UHGV virus genome: UHGV-0076394
Origin: a virus
Direction: 5' to 3' (one strand)
DNA: 34,814 bases
In this document: positions 11 to 27,775 of the stretch, piece by piece
Position numbering within the stretch: the first letter of the stretch is position 1
Layout of the letters: the number at the start of each line of letters is the position of its first letter
Translations under genes and position numbers: made by a program
Notes under the pieces: model-generated
Database searches by the model: none
Seen by the model: only the letters and a program-made list of their open reading frames with translations
What the model was told of the DNA's origin: nothing

Positions 11-28
11 TGTGTACATTTGTACACA
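11..28. promoter_or_regulatory. Palindromic candidate operator TGTGTACA-tt-TGTACACA upstream of the TetR-family gene
   Basis: Perfect 8-bp inverted repeat with 2-bp spacer, about 22-39 nt upstream of the likely ATG at 50; TetR regulators commonly autoregulate through such dyads. Confidence 0.4.
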
Positions 29-49
29 ATTGCAGAGAGAGGAAATGAC

Positions 50-586
50 ATGCGTCGCGCTAACGATCCGCAACGGCGAGAAAAAATTATCCAGGCCACG
101 CTGGAGGCGGTGAAACTTTACGGAATACATGCTGTTACGCACCGCAAAATTGCTACCCTTGCCGGGGTACCGTTGGGATCGATGACCTACTATTTTTCAG
201 GAATTGATGAGTTGTTACTGGAGGCGTTCAGCAGTTTTACTGAGATCATGTCCCGGCAATATCAGGCATTTTTTAGCGATGTTAGTGATGCTCCGGGCGC
301 ATGCCAGGCTATCACCGATATGATCTACAGCTCACAGGTTGCAACGCCGGATAACATGGAGCTGATGTACCAGCTCTACGCGCTGGCTAGCCGAAAACCG
401 CTATTAAAAACGGTAATGCAAAACTGGATGCAGCGCAGTCAGCAAACGCTCGAACAATGGTTTGAACCCGGAACCGCCCGCGCGCTTGATGCGTTTATTG
501 AGGGGATGACGCTGCATTTTGTCACCGACCGTAAGCCGCTATCGCGCGAGGAGATTTTGAGGATGGTTGAGAGGGTTGCAGGGTAG
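50..586 (+). CDS. TetR/AcrR-family transcriptional regulator (host gene flanking the prophage)
   Basis: ORF 20..586; N-terminal HTH-like segment ([37 protein letters not shown]) typical of TetR family; ATG at 50 is preceded by a GAGAGGA Shine-Dalgarno, the track start at 20 is a TTG. Confidence 0.8.
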
Positions 587-4888: not shown

Positions 4889-5742
4889 GCACCATCCTGA
4901 AATGGGCGGGAAATAAAACTGCCATAATGTCCGAACTGAAAAAACATCTTCCTGCTGGCCCGCGACTGGTTGAACCTTTCGCGGGTTCCTGTGCTGTGAT
5001 GATGGAGACGGATTATCCCAGCTATCTGGTTGCGGATATTAATCCTGATTTAATCAACCTCTATAAAAAGGTTGCCGCTGATTGTGAATCGTTTATATCT
5101 CGCGCCAGAGTTTTATTTGAGATCGCAAACAGGGAGGTGGCTTATTACAACATAAGGCAGGAGTTTAATTACTCAACTGAAATTACTGATTTCATGAGAG
5201 CGGTATATTTCCTGTATCTCAATCGTCACGGTTACCGTGGTTTATGTCGCTATAACAAGAGCGGGCATTTCAACATTCCCTACGGTAATTATAAAAATCC
5301 GTATTTCCCTGAAAAAGAAATTCGCGCATTTGCAGAAAAGGCCCAGCGAGCAACGTTTATCTGCGCCAGCTTTGATGAAACGCTGGCGATGTTGAAGGCG
5401 GGGGATGTGGTGTATTGCGATCCGCCGTATGACGGTACGTTTTCCGGCTATCACACTGACGGCTTCACTGAAGATGACCAGTATCACCTGGCATCTGTTC
5501 TTGAACATCGGTCATCAGAAGGACATCCGGTCATTGTTTCTAACAGTGACACATCCCTGATCCGTTCGCTGTATCGCAATTTTACTCACCACTACATCAA
5601 GGCAAAACGCAGCATCGGTGTGGCAGCTGGCGAGGGTAAATCAGCAACAGAAATCATTGCTGTTTCCGGGCCGCGCTGCTGGGTGGGATTTGATTATTCG
5701 CGTGGCGTGGATAGTTCTGCCGTGTACGGAGTACGTGCATGA
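4885..5742 (+). CDS. dam: DNA adenine methyltransferase (Dam-like, N6-adenine, D12 class)
   Basis: Start at the internal ATG 4885 (GGAGG Shine-Dalgarno; ATGA overlap with the upstream stop); N-terminal LKWAGNK, AdoMet-binding EPFAGS and catalytic DPPY motifs. Confidence 0.85.
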
Positions 5743-8153
5743 GTCATGCCGATATGAACAACTGCTGCGGCTTTAACGAAGCTGCCGCATCGTTCTCATG
5801 GAACAGCCCGAAAAAGGCCATTAACCCTTATCTGGACCCGGTGGAAGTTGCGCCGGTTTCTACGCTTTCAAACCTGATCACTCTGTACGCTGCCGATAAC
5901 GAGCAGGAACAGCTGCGCCGTGAGGCGCTGAGTGATCAGGTTTGGGAGCGTTATTTCTTTAATGAATCCCGTGATCCTGTCCAGCGCGAAATGGAACAGG
6001 ATAAGCTCATTAGTCGGGCAAAGCTGGCGCATGAGCAGCAGCGTTTTAATCCGGATATGGTCATTCTGGCGGACGTCAACGCCCAGCCTTCCCATATCAG
6101 CAAGCCGCTGATGCAACGTATTGAATACTTCAGCAGCCTGGGCAGGCCAAAGGCTTATTCCCGCTATTTACGTGAGACGATTAAGCCATGTCTGGAACGA
6201 CTGGAGCATGTACGCGACAGTCAGCTATCTGCATCTTTTCGCTTTATGGCAAGCCATGAAGGGCTGGACGGCCTGCTGATCCTGCCTGAAATGAGTCAGG
6301 ATCAGGTGAAACGCCTGTCCACCCTGGTAGCTGCGCATATGAGTATGTGCCTTGATGCCGCTTGTGGCGATTTGTATGCCACCGATGACGTTAAGCCAGA
6401 AGAAATCCGCAATACATGGGAAAGGGTGGCAGCGGAAACCCTGCGTCTGGATGTCATCCCGCCTGCGTTTGAGCAACTCCGTCGGAAAAGAAACCGCCGT
6501 AAACCCGTGCCCTATGAACTCATTCCGGGTTCGCTGGCGCGTATGTTGTGCGCCGACTGGTGGTATCGGAAATTATGGAAGATGCGTTGCGAATGGCGGG
6601 AAGAGCAGTTGCGTGCAGTCTGCCTTGTCAGCAAAAAAGCATCTCCTTATGTCAGCTATGAAGCCGTGATGCATAAACGTGAGCAGCGCCGTAAGTCGCT
6701 GGAGTTTTTCCGTTCTCATGAACTGGTGAACGAAGACGGCGACACGCTGGACATGGAGGATGTGGTAAACGCCAGCAGCAGCAACCCAGCGCATCGCCGC
6801 AATGAGATGATGGCCTGTGTTAAAGGTCTGGAGCTTATCGCGGAAATGCGCGGTGACTGCGCCGTTTTCTACACCATCACCTGTCCGTCACGTTTCCATT
6901 CCACGCTAAATAACGGCAGGCCCAACCCAACCTGGACAAATGCGACGGTAAGACAAAGCAGTGATTATCTGGTCGGCATGTTTGCTGCATTTCGTAAGGC
7001 GATGCACAAAGCCGGATTGCGGTGGTATGGCGTGCGGGTGGCTGAGCCGCATCATGACGGTACAGTTCACTGGCACCTGTTGTGTTTTATGCGCAAAAAA
7101 GACCGCCGCACCATCACTGCATTACTGCGTAAGTTTGCCATCCGTGAAGACCGCGAGGAGCTGGGCAATAACACTGGGCCGCGCTTTAAGTCTGAGTTGA
7201 TTAACCCGCGCAAAGGTACGCCAACAAGCTACATCGCGAAATACATCAGTAAGAACATTGACGGGCGTGGTCTGGCTGGCGAGATCAGCAAGGAAACGGG
7301 GAAATCCCTGCGTGATAATGCTGAATACGTTAATGCCTGGGCGTCTCTGCATCGTGTTCAGCAATTCCGCTTCTTTGGCATTCCGGGGCGTCAGGCTTAC
7401 CGTGAACTGCGATTGCTGGCTGGTCAGGCGGCAAGGCAACAGGGGGACAAAAAAGCAGGTGCGCCGGTACTGGATAACCCGCGCCTTGATGCCATTCTGG
7501 CTGCTGCTGATGCTGGTTGTTTTGCCACCTACATCATGAAGCAGGGTGGCGTACTGGTTCCCCGCAAATATCACCTCATCAGAACTGCTTATGAAATCAA
7601 CGAAGAGCCGACCGCCTATGGCGATCACGGCATTCGTATTTATGGCATCTGGTCACCTATTGCAGAGGGCAAGATCTGCACTCATGCCGTGAAGTGGAAA
7701 ATGGTTCGTAAGGCCGTTGACGTTCAGGAGGCGGCAGCCGACCAGGGCGCTTGCGCCCCTTGGACTCGTGGCAATAACTGTCCCCTTGCTGAAAATTTGT
7801 ACCAACAAGGGAAAGACAAATCAGCTGATGGGGATACCAGAACGGATATCACCCGTATGGATGACAAGGAGTTGCACGATTACCTGCACAGTATGAACAA
7901 AAAAGAACGCCGGGAACTGGCTGCAAGGTTACGCCTGGTGAAACCGAAACGGCGTAGAGACTACAAACAGCGAATTACAGACCATCAACGACAGCAGCTC
8001 GTCTATGAACTGAAGTCCAGAGGATTTGATGGCAGCGAGAAAGAGGTCGATTTACTCCTTCGCGGCGGCAGCATTCCGTCAGGAGCAGGCCTGCGTATTT
8101 TCTATCGGAACCAGCGTTTGCAGGAAGATGATAAGTGGCGGAACCTGTATTAA
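5739..8153 (+). CDS. A: Replication initiation endonuclease (P2 gpA / 186 A family, rolling-circle initiator)
   Basis: 804 aa; ATGA overlap with dam; HxH metal-binding motif (VHWHLLCF) and Tyr-containing segment (YIAKYISK) typical of gpA-type nickases. Confidence 0.85.
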
Positions 8154-8247
8154 TTACGCGGATTAACAATTCGTGCTCTTAATAATACCAGGCATATCAG
8201 GCTGATGAACGTAAAAAAACGTTTTACATCAGTAAGATTATTATATA

Positions 8248-8263
8248 CTGTAAATATAAACAG
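8248..8263. promoter_or_regulatory. LexA box (SOS operator) CTGTAAATATAAACAG
   Basis: Exact CTGT-N8-ACAG with an AT-rich centre, about 45-60 nt upstream of the small ORF at 8307, overlapping -10-like hexamers. Confidence 0.7.
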
Positions 8264-8306
8264 TGGTTATGTATACAGTATTGCTTGTGGTGTCATAGGA
8301 GGAAAG

Positions 8307-8495
8307 ATGCAGGACTATTTTTTGGAGTCTTTGAAGCTCCAACGCATTGATTTTTTTCTTAAGCTTGTAGCGGCTAGTGAGTGTAGTGATGAAGAGAAGG
8401 GGCTGGCCCTGCAGTGGGTTTCTGAACTGACAGATGAACTCATGGCAAAAATCAGAAGCCACGAATACAACCGCTCAATGGATGTCATCAGCTGA
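8307..8495 (+). CDS. Small SOS-regulated protein (62 aa), possible Tum-like antirepressor module
   Basis: ATG at 8307 preceded by AGGAGGAAAG Shine-Dalgarno; directly downstream of the LexA box; in the slot that holds tum in 186. Confidence 0.45.
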   Translation: MQDYFLESLKLQRIDFFLKLVAASECSDEEKGLALQWVSELTDELMAKIRSHEYNRSMDVIS

Positions 8496-8505
8496 GGGGA
8501 CTTTT

Positions 8506-8739
8506 ATGCGCATTGAAATAATGATCGATAAAGAGCAGAAGATTAGCCAGTCTACCCTAGACGCCCTTGAATCAGAGCTTTACCGCAATCTGCGCCCCCT
8601 GTATCCCAAAACGGTAATTCGTATCCGTAAAGGTAGCTCTAACGGTGTGGAACTGACCGGACTGCAACTGGACGAAGAAAGGAAACAAGTGATGAAAATT
8701 ATGCAGAAGGTGTGGGAAGACGACAGCTGGCTGCATTAA
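8506..8739 (+). CDS. dinI: DinI-family protein (77 aa)
   Basis: ATG at 8506 with GAGGGGA Shine-Dalgarno; MRIEIMIDKEQ...LESELYRNL...WEDDSWL matches the DinI family pattern (MRIE...acidic C-terminus with W); co-transcribed with the LexA-controlled ORF. Confidence 0.7.
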   Translation: MRIEIMIDKEQKISQSTLDALESELYRNLRPLYPKTVIRIRKGSSNGVELTGLQLDEERKQVMKIMQKVWEDDSWLH

Positions 8740-9123
8740 GAAACGTTGCTGGCGTCTGAACTTGCTTCTGGCGTCAGCAAGGTTGAACAACGAGCTATGC
8801 GAGGCGTTAGCCATCTGATCAAAAGACATCAAATATCATATTGTATATCGTGGTCAAACGCTGGAAACAATCATTCCCGATCAGAGGGGCTTCTTTCAAT
8901 GTCCAAAAGAGTGAGATAGAGGATACAGGATGGGAAGAGCTTTTGATTAATTATCGTCCAAGTTTTTCAAAAGCTTCTTATCTGGCGGTCGATACATGAT
9001 TTACTGTTGGATATGGTATTTAAAATTAATCTTTACACTGTGGTATATGCAGAATAGGATATTATCAATACAATCAAACTGTTTTCATACGGTTATTAAT
9101 ATTGCAATGTTATAGGTAATGTC

Positions 9124-10242
9124 ATGTATCTTTTCAAGTATTACCGTCCGGACTTCTTCTTCGAGAAAGCTATTCGTTATAATGAATTATATTTTTCCGC
9201 TCCTGCGCAATTGAATGATCCCAATGATCTCAATATAGATTATCGCTTCGATAATAAATTGAAATTATGGGATATTTTATTGCGTTCTCCTTGCGATAAA
9301 TCCTATAAAAATTTGAGTCACATATTGGATTTGAGTAATTTGAAAATACATAAGGGATTGAATCGTATTTTTAGAGGAAAAAAAATAAAAAGTAGCATTG
9401 AGTCATTAGATAGCCTGTTTGACTCACACGTTGATGAGATACGTAAGATCATAGATGATGGTTTACTACCTATCAATGTGATTAATTCTGCTATTTATGG
9501 AAATATTCCTGAACCACGCCAATATTTGGTTTCACTTTGCGAGAACAGTATCAAAGAAAGGTTGTATAGGAAAATAGTTCCTGCAGTATTCAGTGTGTCA
9601 TTTTCAGCTAATGCGTTAGATCGTATGATGTGGGCGCATTATGCTGCTGGCTTTAGTGGTTGTGTTGTGATTTATGAAACGCAGGATTTTAATATTGATG
9701 GTATACCCTATACTGGAATGAAGCTAAGAGAAAATTTATTTTCATCAGATAAATTTAATTTTCCAGTTAAGCCAATAAAATATAGTAATCAGGCTAAAGA
9801 GGTTTCACTTCTAGACCCAAGCGCAAATGTTGCAGAGTTATTTTTAACTAAAAATAGATTTTGGAGATATGAAGCTGAATATCGAATGTTTATTCCGGAG
9901 GCAAATGCAGGAATAGGGAGTGAGCGGCATGTTCAAAGACGCGTAAATCGAAATATTGGACATATTTTTCATCATGATGCTAATGTTGTTAAAGGGATCA
10001 TTTTTGGTCCTAGAATGTGTGAAATGAAAAAAGAAAGCATATGGAATTGTATCAAGTCAAATATGGAGAATTCAAATTCAACAATATGTTATTTTTTTGA
10101 CTCTGAGTTATCAGCATCAGGAAAGATTACTATTTCAAAAGGGCAACGAGCGGAAAAAATGAAAAATTTCACTTTGTTCAGGAACAAGTTAAGTCAGACG
10201 GAAATGGCTAAAGTTTTGAAGGAAATTGGCATTACGAACTAA
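9124..10242 (+). CDS. DUF2971-like protein (372 aa), AT-rich accessory gene
   Basis: N-terminus MYLFKYYR...NELYFSAPAQLNDPNDL and internal MWAHYA / FWRYEAEYR motifs as recalled for DUF2971; strongly AT-rich compared with flanking phage genes. Confidence 0.6.
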   Translation: MYLFKYYRPDFFFEKAIRYNELYFSAPAQLNDPNDLNIDYRFDNKLKLWDILLRSPCDKSYKNLSHILDLSNLKIHKGLNRIFRGKKIKSSIESLDSLFDSHVDEIRKIIDDGLLPINVINSAIYGNIPEPRQYLVSLCENSIKERLYRKIVPAVFSVSFSANALDRMMWAHYAAGFSGCVVIYETQDFNIDGIPYTGMKLRENLFSSDKFNFPVKPIKYSNQAKEVSLLDPSANVAELFLTKNRFWRYEAEYRMFIPEANAGIGSERHVQRRVNRNIGHIFHHDANVVKGIIFGPRMCEMKKESIWNCIKSNMENSNSTICYFFDSELSASGKITISKGQRAEKMKNFTLFRNKLSQTEMAKVLKEIGITN

Positions 10243-10308
10243 CCTAACAACAGTGCATGCCTATGCTGCCTGAATTTGCATGACCGTTTGAGGATCGTTT
10301 TTGCTAAG

Positions 10309-10332
10309 GCCCGCCAGAACTGGCGGGCTTTT
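10309..10332 (+). terminator. Rho-independent terminator GCCCGCCAG-aa-CTGGCGGGC-TTTT
   Basis: Perfect 9-bp GC-rich stem, 2-nt loop, followed by TTTT; 67 nt downstream of the DUF2971-like gene stop. Confidence 0.7.
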
Positions 10333-10377
10333 GCGTGGATCAGGCACCTGCATGAAAACCACTACACAAAGCGGGTA

Positions 10378-10396
10378 GGCGTGGCGGGGATACGAG
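10378..10396. other. Candidate cos (cohesive end) core GGCGTGGCGGGGATACGAG
   Basis: First 13 nt equal the start of the 19-nt cohesive end recalled for phage 186 (GGCGTGGCGGGGA...); lies in a GC-rich backbone-like segment between the two AT-rich cargo genes; not verified. Confidence 0.3.
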
Positions 10397-10472
10397 CGCG
10401 CGGAAGCAGTTTCACATATAATTCGATTGGTGTAATCTGAGCTACAACTTAAGAAAAGAGGATGAGTTAATC

Positions 10473-12212
10473 ATGGAATTGCACGCATATACTAGAACCA
10501 TATCAGAATTACTTTCTGTTAATAGAAAATATGTTGTTCCAAGATTTCAACGCGAATATTCTTGGGTAAAAGAACAAATTAATGAGCTTTGGTACGATGT
10601 AATATCTAATATAAAATTAGAGAGTGATTTCACATATTCTAATAATGAGTATTTTATTGGTTCTTTAGTTTTGGTTGGAGATGAAACAGGAAGGGAGATG
10701 CAAATAGTTGATGGTCAGCAACGACTTACAACTCTTACAATTTTTCTTTCCGTTTTATGCGAGGCGTTCAAATCAAACAATCAATCAGATTTAGCGTCTG
10801 CCCTATTTGAAAATTATATTGAAGGTCGTGATGATGATGGTAAGAAATTCTTTAAATTAATAAATGAAACGCCTAAACCTTTTTTTCAGAAAAATATCCA
10901 GCATATTAATAAGGCAGATGACATCCCACAGACACAAGAAGAGCGAAATCTCTTGTCAGCATATAAAGAAATTACATCGTTAGCCTCAAAGGAAAAGTTG
11001 GAAAAATATTTTTCAGTAGAAATTAATACTGAGGATAATTATTCCAGTGTATTAAAGGCAATTAGGGATCAGATTTTAAGATTCCTAAAGATAATTTTCA
11101 TTACTGTTAATGAAGAGGACGAGGCGTATACAATATTTGAAACATTAAATGCTAGAGGGATGAATTTAAGTTTTGTAGATTTAATCAAAAATAAATTATT
11201 TAAAGCGTTAAATGACCCACATCCAAATGATGATGCAAAAGATAATTGGAAGGCTATACGTACTACTTTAATGCAAAGAAATGGTGTAGGGACTTTTGAG
11301 AATTACATGAGGCACTGGTGGGTGTCGAAGTATGCTTATGTGAGCAATGAAAATCTTTATAAATCCTTTATTGGCAAATGGCGTAAGGGGGAAATTAATC
11401 CGGCAACCTTTATTGACGAATTGAAACAGGATGCCGAATTGTATGTACGCTTGTCATCTCCTTTGGAGAGTGATTATCCACAAATGGAAGACAAACAGTT
11501 ATTTCATTCGTTGAATGCAATTAGGCTATTTGGTATAACACAGTGTAGACCTTTTTTATTAGCCTTACTAAAGGCGAAGCAGCAAAAGAGATTACGTCAA
11601 TGTGATCTTTTAAAAGCAGTTAAATATATTGAAAATTTTCATTTTGTATTTAATGCGGTATGTTCATTAAGACCGTCAGGGATAGAAGGAGCATATTCTA
11701 AGGCCGCAAGATCTATAAATTCACCAAATGCTACAAAAGCAACTAATGGAACAACAATTGACCAGTTATGTATGTTGTTGAGTAATCGCAAGCCGGAAAT
11801 TTCTGTATTTACTGAACATTTTAGGGATATATTGTTTACTGATGACAACTCCAAACAAAAAAGATTAGTTCAATATATTATAAATAAATTTGAAATGGCC
11901 CGTCATAATGGAGATGAGTATCGTCCTAATTCTATCTCTTTAGAACATGTAATGCCTCAAAGTGCTGGCGACGATAAGGAAATAGGAATGGTTGGAAATA
12001 TAATCCCCCTGTCAAAAGAACTTAATGAGCAAGCTGGTGATAAATCATTGGCACAAAAGCTTTCTATCTATTCTCAATCGGAGTTTAGATTGACAGAAGA
12101 GTTTGTTAGTGAACTTGAAACCATTTACCATAATGAATGGAATCTCCAGTCTATTATTCAGAAGACGGATAGGATGGCTGGTGAGGCTTATATGATTATT
12201 TGGAGTCATTAA
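10473..12212 (+). CDS. DUF262/DUF1524 two-domain nuclease (GmrSD-like type IV restriction family)
   Basis: N-terminal DUF262 signatures VPRFQREYSW and DGQQRLTTL; C-terminal DUF1524-like His-Me segment SLEHVMPQS...GNIIPLSKELN; AT-rich. Confidence 0.75.
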   Translation: MELHAYTRTISELLSVNRKYVVPRFQREYSWVKEQINELWYDVISNIKLESDFTYSNNEYFIGSLVLVGDETGREMQIVDGQQRLTTLTIFLSVLCEAFKSNNQSDLASALFENYIEGRDDDGKKFFKLINETPKPFFQKNIQHINKADDIPQTQEERNLLSAYKEITSLASKEKLEKYFSVEINTEDNYSSVLKAIRDQILRFLKIIFITVNEEDEAYTIFETLNARGMNLSFVDLIKNKLFKALNDPHPNDDAKDNWKAIRTTLMQRNGVGTFENYMRHWWVSKYAYVSNENLYKSFIGKWRKGEINPATFIDELKQDAELYVRLSSPLESDYPQMEDKQLFHSLNAIRLFGITQCRPFLLALLKAKQQKRLRQCDLLKAVKYIENFHFVFNAVCSLRPSGIEGAYSKAARSINSPNATKATNGTTIDQLCMLLSNRKPEISVFTEHFRDILFTDDNSKQKRLVQYIINKFEMARHNGDEYRPNSISLEHVMPQSAGDDKEIGMVGNIIPLSKELNEQAGDKSLAQKLSIYSQSEFRLTEEFVSELETIYHNEWNLQSIIQKTDRMAGEAYMIIWSH

Positions 12213-12257: not shown

Positions 12258-13289
12258 CTACTCTAACACGTAATTACTAAATGAAATTATCGGTTTCTTA
12301 ATCCATTTGTTTAATTCGTGTATGCGTTTTTGTAAGGGAATTAACTCGTTTCTTACAAAAACCTTACTAGCCTTCTCCACATCCCCAAACCCCCCGACAT
12401 TACTAGGCATTATCCCCATCATTTGTGGCGGCACGCGGTGCGCAGCCATCATGTCATCACGGCTCACGTTTTTGATATTCAGAAACTCATCCTTCGCTGC
12501 GACTTCTGACAACGGGATGATCTGAAGCCCGTCCTTTTTGCCGTTAGGCGAGTACATAAACAGGTTGCGGAAGTTACCTGGGCCTTTGGCGCTTTTCATC
12601 GCATTACGGAGGTTGTTCACATCCTCCTGGTTCTGCGCGGCATCGGTCATGTACATGATGAAGCCAGCATGACTACCGTTAATGTAATACTTCCGGCGGA
12701 ACAGCGTGGCGGACTCGTTGAGCAAAGCGGATGGGATGGCAGAAAGATAGCCGGGCAGGCCGTAGATCTCCTGATTAATATCCGGTTCCATCAGATGAAA
12801 AATGCTGCCTTTTGTGAACTGATACGGCTGGGTTGTCATACCGTATTGCACAAACCAGTAGGTATCCAGGTCTAACCCGCGTCGGGTGTATTTCGCCAGG
12901 GCAGGTTCAAGGGCGATCACTTCACCGAAGCGGTTCGTGCGTTTCTCCAGGTAGGCGTTACCAAATACCAGATAGTCCTGCACAAAACGTGAAAACGCCT
13001 GCTGGCTGAGCAGCGGATGAGGGATGTAGGTGCTGGTCAGTATGTTGCACTTTACGGCAATCGGTGAGCTGTGGTGCACGGCGGCGCGAAAGGTTCGCGC
13101 CAGCCCGTCGAAACTCACTGGTGGCTCATACCAGCGGTCCATCTGTACGCATTCCACATAATCCAGCAGTTCTCGGCGGTCCAGAACAGGAACGGGATCG
13201 CCGAAGCTGAATGCTTCGGCTGAAGTCTGGTTTTTATGCTGGATCTGTTTCGTCGCCGCAGCGCGGTTTTTCTTACTCTTTCCCATCAA
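12258..13289 (-). CDS. Q: Portal protein (P2 gpQ family)
   Basis: 343 aa, leftward, immediately downstream of the large terminase with overlapping stop/start; conserved order and size for P2 Q. Confidence 0.85.
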   Translation of the reverse strand: MMGKSKKNRAAATKQIQHKNQTSAEAFSFGDPVPVLDRRELLDYVECVQMDRWYEPPVSFDGLARTFRAAVHHSSPIAVKCNILTSTYIPHPLLSQQAFSRFVQDYLVFGNAYLEKRTNRFGEVIALEPALAKYTRRGLDLDTYWFVQYGMTTQPYQFTKGSIFHLMEPDINQEIYGLPGYLSAIPSALLNESATLFRRKYYINGSHAGFIMYMTDAAQNQEDVNNLRNAMKSAKGPGNFRNLFMYSPNGKKDGLQIIPLSEVAAKDEFLNIKNVSRDDMMAAHRVPPQMMGIMPSNVGGFGDVEKASKVFVRNELIPLQKRIHELNKWIKKPIISFSNYVLE

Positions 13290-21028: not shown

Positions 21029-21895
21029 TTACTTTTTACTGATAAATGGATTCCTATCAATCCATGAGTCCCAGTTTATATAATTGTCATCAAATCCTAT
21101 GAATTTCATTAGTACAAGTGGCACCAGTAAATTCAAATTTGATGAGTAATCTTGAATTTCAATTTTGCCATCTGAGTTTTTTTCATCAAGATAGGCAATG
21201 TATTTACCATTGTGGAACAGCGAGTGACGGAGTTTGCAGTAATGCATAATGTTTCTTTGAGCTAATGTATGTCCTGTTTTTTCGACATTAAAACCATATT
21301 CTTTTAAAACCTGAGTGATTATTTGTGGTGTTTTGGCAGGGGAGTAGTCATTTTTAATAAATCTGCAAAGTGCTTCTAGTGCCGAGAATAATAAATAATA
21401 TCTGACGTCGATATAATTTATTGAGTCGCGGAAAGCTAGCATTGATTTAAAAAATGATGTTCTAAAGGCATCTTGTTTTAGCATGGCTTTACTATTTAGT
21501 TTTTCCATGGCTAAGCAAATAAAATTTTCTCGGCTGTTTGGTGCAAAATAATCTTCCATGATGATAATGCCCGCACCCTTATCTCTTTTTTTGTCAAGCT
21601 TTTTGGGTAGAGATGGTTTGAAATTGAAAGGGGTTTCATCATTTTCAAGTTCTCCTGAAATGATTACATTTTTTTGTTCAATAAAACTAAGAACTGCTTG
21701 TAAATCAAAAATAAGCTGCTGTTGAGTGGCGTAGTTATTCGAGTTTGGTTTGAAAAAACCAGTGAGGATGTACCTATCATTAGCCCAGCCATTTTTTTTT
21801 AACTCACTCCATGAACTGAAAATAGGAGTTAACTCACCACCGTCAAATGTGATTTTTTTAGTGAAATTAAATCCATAAATTGCGATTTGTGTCAT
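21029..21895 (-). CDS. AT-rich accessory protein (289 aa) with R-x4-H motif; candidate HEPN/Abi-like defence protein
   Basis: Minus-strand gene inserted between S and V; ATG at 21895 preferred over 21943; contains CKLRHSLFHNG (R-x4-H); markedly AT-rich. Confidence 0.55.
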   Translation of the reverse strand: MTQIAIYGFNFTKKITFDGGELTPIFSSWSELKKNGWANDRYILTGFFKPNSNNYATQQQLIFDLQAVLSFIEQKNVIISGELENDETPFNFKPSLPKKLDKKRDKGAGIIIMEDYFAPNSRENFICLAMEKLNSKAMLKQDAFRTSFFKSMLAFRDSINYIDVRYYLLFSALEALCRFIKNDYSPAKTPQIITQVLKEYGFNVEKTGHTLAQRNIMHYCKLRHSLFHNGKYIAYLDEKNSDGKIEIQDYSSNLNLLVPLVLMKFIGFDDNYINWDSWIDRNPFISKK

Positions 21896-21924
21896 CTTAA
21901 ATACCTTAGAAATTGTTTCTCTTT

Positions 21925-21942
21925 TGTATGGTTCTCCATACA
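21925..21942. promoter_or_regulatory. TGT-N12-ACA dyad (TGTATGG-ttct-CCATACA), candidate late promoter pV activator site
   Basis: Perfect 7-bp inverted repeat conforming to TGT-N12-ACA about 50-65 nt upstream of the V start codon, in the short region shared with the divergent cargo gene. Confidence 0.45.
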
Positions 21943-21990
21943 TACGCTCTGTATTACATCACTCTACCCGGTTGTGCAAGGATCGCTCTC

Positions 21991-26049: not shown

Positions 26050-26654
26050 TGGCGAAAGCAAAATTAAACAGTGCGTTTATTGCCACCGTGGCAGGAGAAA
26101 TCACTGTGTACAACTACCGGGGCGACACCCGCGAATACATATCCTCATCGGTTGAGTATCTGCCTGTGGGGGTGGGTATTCCTGCCAATTCCTGTACCGA
26201 TGCGCCCGGCACACATAAGGCTGGTTATGCAATCTGCCGTTCTGCAGATTTTAACTCATGGGAATATGTGCCAGACCATCGCGGTGAAATTGTCTATGGC
26301 ATCGAAACGGGGGAATCAAAAGAAATTACTGTGCCGGGGGATTACCCTGAAAATACGACCACTTTTGCCCCATTAACGCCATACGATAAATGGGATGGTG
26401 AGAAATGGGTAACAGATACCGAGGCACAGCATAGCGCCGCAGTAGATGCAGCAGAAGTACAGCGCCAGTCTCTGATTGATGCTGCTATGGCTTCCATCAG
26501 TCTGATTCAGCTGAAATTGCAGGCCGGACGTAAACTGACGCAGGCAGAAACAACCCGCCTTAACGCTGTGCTGGATTACATTGACGCGGTGACGGCAATA
26601 GATACCAGCACCGCGCCTGATATTATTTGGCCTGTATTCCCTGAGACTGATTAA
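26049..26654 (+). CDS. G: Tail fibre assembly protein (P2 gpG / Tfa family)
   Basis: 201 aa; start overlaps the H stop; position of P2 gene G. Confidence 0.75.
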   Translation: MAKAKLNSAFIATVAGEITVYNYRGDTREYISSSVEYLPVGVGIPANSCTDAPGTHKAGYAICRSADFNSWEYVPDHRGEIVYGIETGESKEITVPGDYPENTTTFAPLTPYDKWDGEKWVTDTEAQHSAAVDAAEVQRQSLIDAAMASISLIQLKLQAGRKLTQAETTRLNAVLDYIDAVTAIDTSTAPDIIWPVFPETD

Positions 26655-26844
26655 CCTCAATCAGTATTGGTTCGCCTTTCTCATTAATTGTTAGCTCCAT
26701 GCCCTGAGGAATTTCTGTCATAGTAAAAAACCAGTTGTCCTCCGGTAATTCAATAGCCCCGGTCACGTCATGAAGACCGGGGATTACTTCAGTCAAAGTA
26801 ACTGGATTAAACAGGCGCACAATAAACCCTCCATGAAAAAGCAT
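26623..26844 (-). CDS. Putative alternative tail-fibre assembly/chaperone protein (G')
   Basis: Small minus-strand ORF (start taken as the internal ATG at 26844) immediately downstream of the alternative fibre C-terminus, convergent with and overlapping the 3' end of G. Confidence 0.3.
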   Translation of the reverse strand: MLFHGGFIVRLFNPVTLTEVIPGLHDVTGAIELPEDNWFFTMTEIPQGMELTINEKGEPILIEVNQSQGIQAK

Positions 26845-27136
26845 TTGGTGATGGTCTGCCGTCGTACATCTGGCAGCGGACATAAAAACCGGTATTAGTG
26901 ACCCGGTCATCCACGATCATTGAAACGTGAACATTATTAGATGTGCCCACATAATCCGTTCCTATTCTTTCCGCTATGCTGATAAAACGTGAAAGCTTAG
27001 GTAGCGCAATTGGGTAAACGACTTTAGCCAGTCCATTATCATTAGATCCACCGGTTCCAAATACTTCTATTGCACCATCTGACCAGCGTACCCATGCACC
27101 ATTGGCATTAGCTCCTCGCTGAATGACATATCTGGC
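26807..27136 (-). CDS. Alternative tail-fibre C-terminal segment (Hv'), silent in the present orientation
   Basis: Minus-strand ORF 26807..27190; its codons 11-18 (FLNVGLGE) are encoded by the inversion site; after inversion H codons 1-354 would join in frame to ARYVIQRGANANGAWVRW...; a separate translation start is unlikely. Confidence 0.55.
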   Translation of the reverse strand, partial: ARYVIQRGANANGAWVRWSDGAIEVFGTGGSNDNGLAKVVYPIALPKLSRFISIAERIGTDYVGTSNNVHVSMIVDDRVTNTGFYVRCQMYDGRPSPNAFSWRVYCAPV

Positions 27137-27162
27137 TTCTCCCAAACCAACGTTTAAGAAAA
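27137..27162. other. Right inversion crossover site (gix/hix-like) TTCTCCCAAACC-AA-CGTTTAAGAAAA
   Basis: Close to the hix/gix consensus (TTCTTGAAAACC-AA-GGTTTTTGATAA); 50 bp upstream of the invertase gene, as in Mu gin and P1 cin. Confidence 0.6.
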
Positions 27163-27217
27163 TGCAGAGATTACGGCTAACTGGCATCATCCCAGATTTT
27201 TATTCAGGGGATTGATC

Positions 27218-27775
27218 ATGCTTATTGGCTATGTACGCGTGTCAACAAATGACCAGAACACCGATTTGCAACGTAATGCACTGAACTGCGCGGGATGTGA
27301 GCGAATTTTTGAGGATAAAATCAGTGGCACTAAGTCCGACAGACCGGGGCTAAAAAAACTGCTCAGGACACTATCGGCAGGAGACACGCTGGTCGTCTGG
27401 AAGCTGGACAGGTTGGGGCGCAGTATGCGGCATCTTGTTACGCTGATAGAAGAGTTGCGCCAGCGTGGCGTGAATTTCCGAAGCCTGACTGACAGTATTG
27501 ATACCAGTACCCCAATGGGCCGTTTCTTTTTTCATGTCATGGGTGCCCTGGCTGAAATGGAACGCGAACTGATAGTTGAACGCACTATGGCAGGGCTGGC
27601 TGCAGCTCGTGCCAAAGGCAGAGTAGGTGGACGCCGTCCTAAGTTGACCACCGAACAGTGGGCACAGATTGGACGTTTACTCGAGGCCGGAGAATCAAGA
27701 CAGCGTATTGCACTGATTTTTGACGTGGGCGTTTCTACCATTTATAGAAAATTTCCGGCGAATAAGAGCAATTAA
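27218..27775 (+). CDS. Serine DNA invertase (Gin/Hin/Cin/Pin family)
   Basis: N-terminus MLIGYVRVSTNDQNTDLQRNAL with the catalytic Ser in the YVRVS motif; C-terminal HTH; about 186 aa. Confidence 0.9.
   Translation: MLIGYVRVSTNDQNTDLQRNALNCAGCERIFEDKISGTKSDRPGLKKLLRTLSAGDTLVVWKLDRLGRSMRHLVTLIEELRQRGVNFRSLTDSIDTSTPMGRFFFHVMGALAEMERELIVERTMAGLAAARAKGRVGGRRPKLTTEQWAQIGRLLEAGESRQRIALIFDVGVSTIYRKFPANKSN

Follow-up and report, generated by a model that had tools for sequence, protein, structure and literature searches.

A predicted SOS induction operon with a putative colicin-type double operator in a Fels-2/DuoHS-type, P2/186-like prophage

How does a prophage with a 186-type repressor respond to DNA damage when the two halves of the 186 antirepressor Tum seem to be encoded by separate genes? 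The question arises from a locus in UHGV-0076394, a P2/186-like (Peduoviridae) prophage sequence that we analysed over its whole length of 34,814 nt (hereafter, the window). A sequence-only reading had picked out a LexA box, a 62-residue open reading frame and a DinI-family gene in succession, and had proposed a split antirepressor/DinI arrangement. It had also pointed out that phage 186 carries, at this position, a LexA-controlled tum gene with a DinI-like C-terminal part. The 186 annotation agrees: behind gene A, the LexA-controlled promoter p95 drives tum, which encodes a protein of 146 residues; translation from an internal GTG start gives a DinI-like C-terminal product, to which the annotation assigns a role in modulating SOS induction.

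The surroundings of the locus are those of a P2/186-like prophage. On the minus strand lie an integrase gene (691–1899) and a gene assigned by Pfam to the 186-type CI repressors (2139–2714), the presumed target of the antirepressor. Cox/Apl-like, CII-like and Dam methylase genes and the usual late genes are also present. Replication gene A (gpA; 5739–8153, plus strand; Pfam Phage_GPA, E = 1.6e-127) adjoins the module on its upstream side and marks its position. The 62-residue open reading frame, which we call ORF62 or tumA, lies directly 3′ of gpA on the same strand, ahead of variable cargo and a portal-like gene (12258–13289, minus strand), and the same gene order is found in 186, PSP3, Fels-2 and E. 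coli HS.

Between gene A and tumA, a stretch of 153 nt contains the putative promoter of the module, Ptum (8223–8251, plus strand). Read by eye, it comprises a −35 element, TTTACA (8223–8228), a 17-nt spacer and a −10 element, TACTGT (8246–8251). The layout is that of the annotated 186 p95 promoter, in which the −10 is also TACTGT and opens the LexA box, and the promoter is identical in E. coli HS, Fels-2 and 813R9. A consensus promoter scanner did not call Ptum because its −10 matches the consensus at three of six positions, and this weakness counts against the explanation that we favour. Going by sequence match alone, the promoter is overlapped by a LexA box. Such a box, placed over promoter-like hexamers upstream of the 62-residue frame, had been the starting point of the sequence-only reading, and it is indeed there: the predicted box 1, TACTGTAAATATAAACAGTG (8246–8265, plus strand), overlaps the −10 and has three mismatches to the 20-mer consensus, a match quality (three mismatches or fewer) reached in none of 100 shuffles. 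Its core, CTGTAAATATAAACAG (8248–8263), is the sole CTGT-N8-ACAG in the window, where 0.43 occurrences of this 16-mer pattern are expected by chance, making it only weakly improbable when taken by itself. Box 1 is invariant in four related prophages (the window, E. coli HS, Fels-2 and 813R9), and the LexA boxes of 186 and PSP3 occur at the equivalent place.

Overlapping box 1 is a second, degenerate and putative LexA box, CAGTGGTTATGTATACAGTA (8261–8280, plus strand), with five mismatches to the consensus; the right half has no mismatch, and the left half has GTG in place of CTG. Aligned with the promoters of the colicin N (cna) and cloacin genes, the two SOS boxes overlap at an (A/C)CAGTGG junction and follow, almost base for base, the operators directly upstream of those genes. 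The likeness extends over the 35-nt operator unit, TACTGTAAATATAAACAGTGGTTATGTATACAGTA, including the ACAGTGGTTAT junction, and matches to this unit at 85–88% occur in small Col-type plasmids. By this comparison the operator contains not one SOS box but two that overlap, as in the colicin promoters. The −35 and upstream parts of the colicin and cloacin promoters, however, are unrelated to Ptum, and those promoters drive a bacteriocin gene whereas Ptum would drive a prophage antirepressor. Colicin operators have been reported to bind two LexA dimers (PMC2994835). In contrast to the window, 186 and PSP3 have a single LexA box, which lies about 20 nt nearer the start codon. Among the four close relatives, the operator varies only at three bases in the middle of box 2 (8271–8273). 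A text search of the literature with the operator sequence found nothing relevant. The putative double operator, of which we found no earlier description for Fels-2/DuoHS-type prophages, is a modest addition to what is known. If it acts as such, tumA would be tightly repressed and expressed late or in an all-or-none fashion, unlike the genes behind the single-box promoters of 186 and PSP3.

The tumA-type gene, predicted to encode a CI antirepressor, extends from ATG 8307 to TGA 8495 (8307–8495, plus strand; 62 residues). The strong Shine-Dalgarno sequence that had been noted ahead of it is AGGAGG (8297–8302, plus strand), which is invariant in relatives. A start at ATG 8205, which would give the maximal frame of 96 residues, is not likely because this codon lies upstream of the promoter; RefSeq annotates the 62-residue form in E. 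coli HS. Many gene callers lengthen the frame to ATG 8205, before the promoter. AlphaFold models TumA as a two-helix hairpin (helices 2–23 and 28–61, pLDDT 87) with Cys26 in the turn. The protein reaches the threshold of no Pfam model and has neither an NCBIfam match nor a relative in the PDB, and TumA-type proteins are listed as 'unknown function' in three PHROGs (698, 8554 and 1993) and as 'hypothetical' in RefSeq. In practical terms this is an annotation gap, as TumA goes unlabelled in databases although its function has been published. Some records name the tumA-type gene 'levan regulatory protein', and a literature search for TumA and TumB as words returned nothing relevant.

ORF62 is 100% identical (62/62) to ECHS_RS04495, the 'tum' of prophage DuoHS in E. 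coli HS, and 97% identical to STM2728 of Fels-2. Pairwise BLASTP of ORF62 against 186 Tum and against PSP3 TumA gave no match, and the comparison of PSP3 TumA with 186 Tum was negative as well; we used profile methods because pairwise search is too insensitive for these 60-residue proteins. By hhalign, the ORF62 family aligned with the family of the 186 Tum N-terminal half at a probability of 94.9% (E = 4e-8), with columns 4–44 collinear with columns 4–44, and the PSP3 TumA family aligned with the same 186 family at 89.6% (E = 2e-6). The direct profile link between ORF62 and PSP3 TumA was weak (hhalign E = 0.017; PHROG E = 0.002). Searches against PHROGs were reciprocal: 186 Tum matched phrog_698, to which ORF62 belongs (2.4e-5), phrog_8554 and phrog_1993, to which PSP3 TumA belongs (1e-22), and ORF62 matched phrog_698, phrog_8554 and phrog_1993 in return. 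On these profiles, ORF62 is a TumA-type homologue of the N-terminal half of 186 Tum.

The search for the ORF62 family covered 1.84 billion proteins and yielded 67 representatives at 50% identity. The family (484 clusters at 90% identity) is made up only of small proteins from prophages of Enterobacterales; matches that are longer have additional N-terminal sequence or are repeats or artefacts. The sequence-only reading had made its proposal depend in part on conservation of the small frame, and a defined core is conserved across the family (M1, D3, E7, R13, I14, C26, W37, E40, L41 and L45), followed by a variable tail. Because ORF62 is conserved, a chance open reading frame is excluded.

A DinI-family gene had been described as following 10 nt after the 62-residue frame, and we found precisely this. 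Past a gap at 8496–8505 lies the tumB-type gene (8506–8739, plus strand; 77 residues), preceded by its own ribosome-binding site, GAGGGG (8494–8499, plus strand). Its product belongs to Pfam DinI (PF06183), matching model positions 1–63 of 63 with E = 6.6e-23 and 81.3 bits (cut-off 24.2), and aligns over its full length with residues 1–77 of the solved DinI structure 1GHH. The C-terminal helix keeps the acidic residues E58, E59, E71, D72 and D73. Against NCBIfam NF007893, the equivalog model of chromosomal DinI, TumB scored 42.7 bits, far below the cut-off of 111, and it is therefore a phage paralogue and not the host DinI. It is 41% identical to residues 71–145 of 186 Tum and 78% identical to PSP3 TumB. 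From these alignments, the DinI-like gene is a TumB-type homologue, the counterpart of the C-terminal half of 186 Tum. The alignment of both frames with 186 Tum, suggested in the sequence-only reading as a check, thus worked in part: TumB aligned pairwise and ORF62 by profile, but ORF62 did not align by BLASTP. With TumB matching Tum 71–145 and ORF62 linked by profile to the N-terminal half, the idea of a split Tum holds.

Directly after tumB, where the conserved module ends, folding predicts a stable hairpin without a U tract (8742–8784, plus strand; −23.5 kcal/mol, z-score −3.3, none of 200 shuffles folding as well). A terminator scanner called no terminator there. 813R9 has a homologous sequence, as does PSP3, though there with many substitutions; no such hairpin occurs in E. 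coli HS or Fels-2, which continue into a gene like orf97 of 186. The hairpin may correspond to the partial terminator t95a or serve to stabilise a 3′ end.

Comparison with known prophages indicates what this pair of genes would do. DuoHS of E. coli HS resembles the window in its TumA, in a CI that is 96% identical (differing at 7 of 189 aligned residues) and in the order gpA, tumA, DinI-like ECHS_RS04500. Its promoter and operator match ours save for a few bases, the three central bases of box 2 being different. The two prophages differ downstream, where DuoHS has an orf97-like gene and the window has the hairpin followed by PDC-S31-like and GmrSD-like genes. The Phollow study (Nat Microbiol 2025, PMC12055606) made an in-frame deletion of tum (ECHS_RS04495) in E. 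coli HS. This Δtum, like lexA(Ind−), abolished mitomycin C-induced lysis and virion formation. The need for a TumA-type gene in SOS-dependent induction has thus been shown for a protein 100% identical to ours, and by analogy induction of the window prophage would depend on tumA and on cleavable LexA.

Split tum genes have been described elsewhere. Lemire 2011 (PMC3121763) reports that tum is split in two in both Fels-2 and PSP3, citing Bunny et al. 2002 for Fels-2, and that the upstream gene of PSP3 carries antirepressor activity. The suggestion that the small upstream frame is the antirepressor part accordingly finds backing both in E. coli HS, where the identical protein is required for induction, and in PSP3. 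The Fels-2 operon STM2726–2728 is induced 5.5- to 14.8-fold by mutagen in Salmonella (PMC2225428). Fels-2, with STM2728 and the DinI-family STM2726.1, is like the window in its TumA and in an identical first LexA box, and its operon responds to DNA damage. Its CI differs, being about 40% identical overall to that of the window (68% in the N-terminal domain, 24% in the remainder), and so do its operators. The PSP3 record describes tumA as 'similar to 5′ end 186 tum; UV induction of prophage' and tumB as 'similar to dinI and 3′ end of 186 tum'. Like the window, PSP3 has two cistrons after gene A behind a LexA box, and its TumB is close to ours. Its TumA, however, is of another subtype (about 22% identical; phrog_1993 as against phrog_698), its LexA box is single, its tumA and tumB share a frame and are split by a stop codon, and the N-terminal domain of its CI is duplicated.

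Phage 186 itself shares with the window the position, the LexA control predicted for the window, the 186-type CI target and homology of both Tum halves. It differs in having one fused 146-residue protein with internal starts, a single LexA box and an N-terminal half that is about 21% identical to ORF62. As Lemire 2011 (PMC3121763) relates from Shearwin 1998, 186 Tum binds CI reversibly and prevents operator binding. The Gifsy dinI-gfoA/gftA operons (Lemire 2011) are LexA-repressed and pair a small antirepressor with a DinI paralogue, but there dinI comes first, in the reverse order, and Lemire 2011 describes a different repressor family. In the Gifsy prophages, non-polar deletion of the dinI homologue had no measurable effect on induction (PMC3121763). 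Given this set of likenesses, we consider the region very probably to be the SOS induction operon of a Fels-2/DuoHS-type, P2/186-like prophage.

Other readings of the locus would assign the parts differently. One makes the DinI-like TumB the trigger of induction, acting through RecA or CI, and reduces the small frame to a leader or coupling peptide. It draws on 186, where antirepressor and DinI-like part are joined in one polypeptide and the internal product is annotated as a modulator of SOS induction, and on the spacing of tumA and tumB, which are only 10 nt apart and may therefore be translationally coupled. The genetics point the other way. In E. coli HS, the deletion that abolishes induction is in frame and removes the 62-residue gene by fusing its start and stop codons; the upstream gene is the one reported to carry antirepressor activity in PSP3, and the non-polar dinI deletions in Gifsy were without effect on induction (Lemire 2011, PMC3121763). 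ORF62 is, moreover, conserved as a protein over a defined core, and we regard TumB as the inducer as very unlikely. A further reading would turn the module into an SOS-modulating accessory pair of use mainly to host or prophage, its DinI paralogue damping RecA*, and distinct from the induction switch of this prophage. In its favour, TumA hardly varies among prophages that differ strongly in their CI C-terminal domains and operators, so strict cognate pairing is not evident. Yet a prophage with an identical TumA and a 96%-identical CI needs tum for its induction, and the type of TumA does track the CI N-terminal domain. This reading we hold to be highly unlikely.

We also considered that programmed recoding, through a +1 frameshift or readthrough of the stop codon, might fuse tumA and tumB into a Tum like that of 186. 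The tumB frame remains open as far upstream as 8434, overlapping the last part of tumA, and is offset from the tumA frame by +1 (8307 versus 8506); in PSP3, tumA and tumB share one frame, with nothing but a stop codon and 3 nt between them. But the same-frame relation of PSP3 differs from the +1 relation of the window, so no single recoding mechanism is conserved. No slippery site was seen at AGC-TGA-G, and TumB has a ribosome-binding site and an ATG of its own. Fusions of ORF62 to DinI were absent among the 67 family representatives drawn from 1.84 billion proteins, and stand-alone forms of 63–78 residues are common for the 186-type Tum N-terminal half too. A programmed frameshift joining the genes was rejected on these grounds, and we judge recoding in general to be extremely unlikely.

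If TumA is an antirepressor, its target should be the prophage repressor. The window CI matches Pfam Phage_CI_repr (2.8e-33) and Phage_CI_C (5.4e-29), is 32% identical to 186 CI and matches the 186 CI structure 2FJR; the prophage uses a 186-type CI. TumA is 84–100% identical in phages whose CI is only 38–56% identical overall to that of the window, a seeming paradox that was mostly resolved by splitting CI into domains. In this comparison, which leaves out E. coli HS with its near-identical CI, the N-terminal helix-turn-helix (HTH) domains of eight heterologous ORF62-type phages are 67–77% identical to that of the window, and those of 186 and PSP3, whose TumA is of other subtypes, 41–46%. For the linker and C-terminal domain, the values are 23–42% and 26–27%, respectively. 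The N-terminal domains of the ORF62-type repressors share a near-invariant stretch, SKST(L/M)A..R..RD.FPA(E/D)W(V/I)IQC.LETG. The type of TumA appears to track the N-terminal DNA-binding domain of CI and not the C-terminal domain, a correlation that covers 12 repressors and three TumA subtypes, a thin basis that is confounded by shared ancestry. As to architecture, the CI proteins of Klebsiella phage Kp4860-7 (313 residues) and PSP3 (286 residues) contain two tandem copies of the N-terminal HTH domain, unlike those of 186, Fels-2 and the window, which have a single one.

The cI-cox/apl switch regions of ORF62-type phages differ strongly, and these phages are therefore probably heteroimmune. 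Together with the domain comparison, this suggests that TumA targets the N-terminal domain of CI and could act across immunity types. If so, one near-invariant TumA could induce many seemingly heteroimmune prophages with differing operators and CI C-terminal domains, and cross-induction between co-resident P2-like prophages would be allowed, as has been shown for the Gifsy phages. The combined proposal, of a Fels-2/DuoHS-type switch that has both a colicin-type double operator and a generalist TumA docking onto the CI N-terminal domain, we advance tentatively, as one somewhat short of probable.

At the level of sequence, the anatomy of the module is a LexA operator over a promoter, two close cistrons, both preceded by a ribosome-binding site, and a 186-type CI encoded elsewhere in the prophage. 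We propose the following course of events. In the uninduced lysogen, LexA would sit on the double overlapping SOS operator, covering the −10 and transcription start region of the sigma-70 promoter (we infer occupancy of both boxes), and keep tumA-tumB silent. After DNA damage, RecA* would promote self-cleavage of LexA, and the operon would be transcribed. The two-helix, 62-residue TumA would then inactivate the non-cleavable 186-type CI and so release the early lytic promoter. By analogy with the biochemistry of 186 Tum, TumA most likely binds CI and prevents it from binding its operators. TumB would be co-expressed with TumA and, from its family membership only, probably modulates RecA filament activity and not CI.

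The module is therefore already known: since tumA and tumB of PSP3 are annotated, the split tum of Fels-2 has been published and the identical TumA of E. coli HS has been tested genetically, it represents an experimentally characterised prophage induction switch, real but ordinary. What novelty remains is modest and limited to the colicin-type double operator and the apparent pairing of a generalist TumA with the CI N-terminal domain. Of 5426 complete E. coli genomes, 1124 carry the module, and in them it is annotated as 'hypothetical protein' and 'DinI-like family protein'. It would set the timing of DNA-damage exit from lysogeny in very common prophages of E. coli, Salmonella and Klebsiella, and because about one-fifth of complete E. 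coli genomes carry it, it is relevant to phage-mediated gene transfer and to antibiotic-triggered lysis.

Elsewhere in the window, the interval from tumB to the portal gene contains variable cargo (9124–12212, plus strand), encoded on the strand of the SOS operon. It includes a 372-residue DUF2971 protein, which PADLOC matches to its candidate system PDC-S31 (1e-23), and a 579-residue type IV restriction enzyme of the GmrSD type (Pfam GmrSD_N and GmrSD_C; PADLOC HEC-06, 1e-90). E. coli HS, Fels-2 and 813R9 have other genes at this position.

The tail-fibre genes are closely followed by a gene for a Hin/Gin/Cin-type serine recombinase (27212–27775, plus strand; 187 residues; Resolvase and HTH_7). 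Adjoining it are minus-strand open reading frames (26623–27190) with weak similarity to tail-fibre C-termini, and the region 26623–27775 resembles an invertible segment for tail fibres (host range). A 304-residue frame occupies the site of P2 orf30 among the tail and baseplate genes, on the strand opposite to theirs (21029–21943, minus strand). Neither Pfam nor PADLOC gave a match to it; it belongs to phrog_4373 (unknown function) and is probably an accessory (moron) gene. The integrase frame is 402 residues long in the window as against 343 annotated in E. coli HS. At the integrase end of the prophage is a TetR-family gene (20–586, plus strand); rcdA likewise adjoins DuoHS in E. coli HS, and this TetR-family neighbour suggests that the window prophage and DuoHS occupy the same attachment site.
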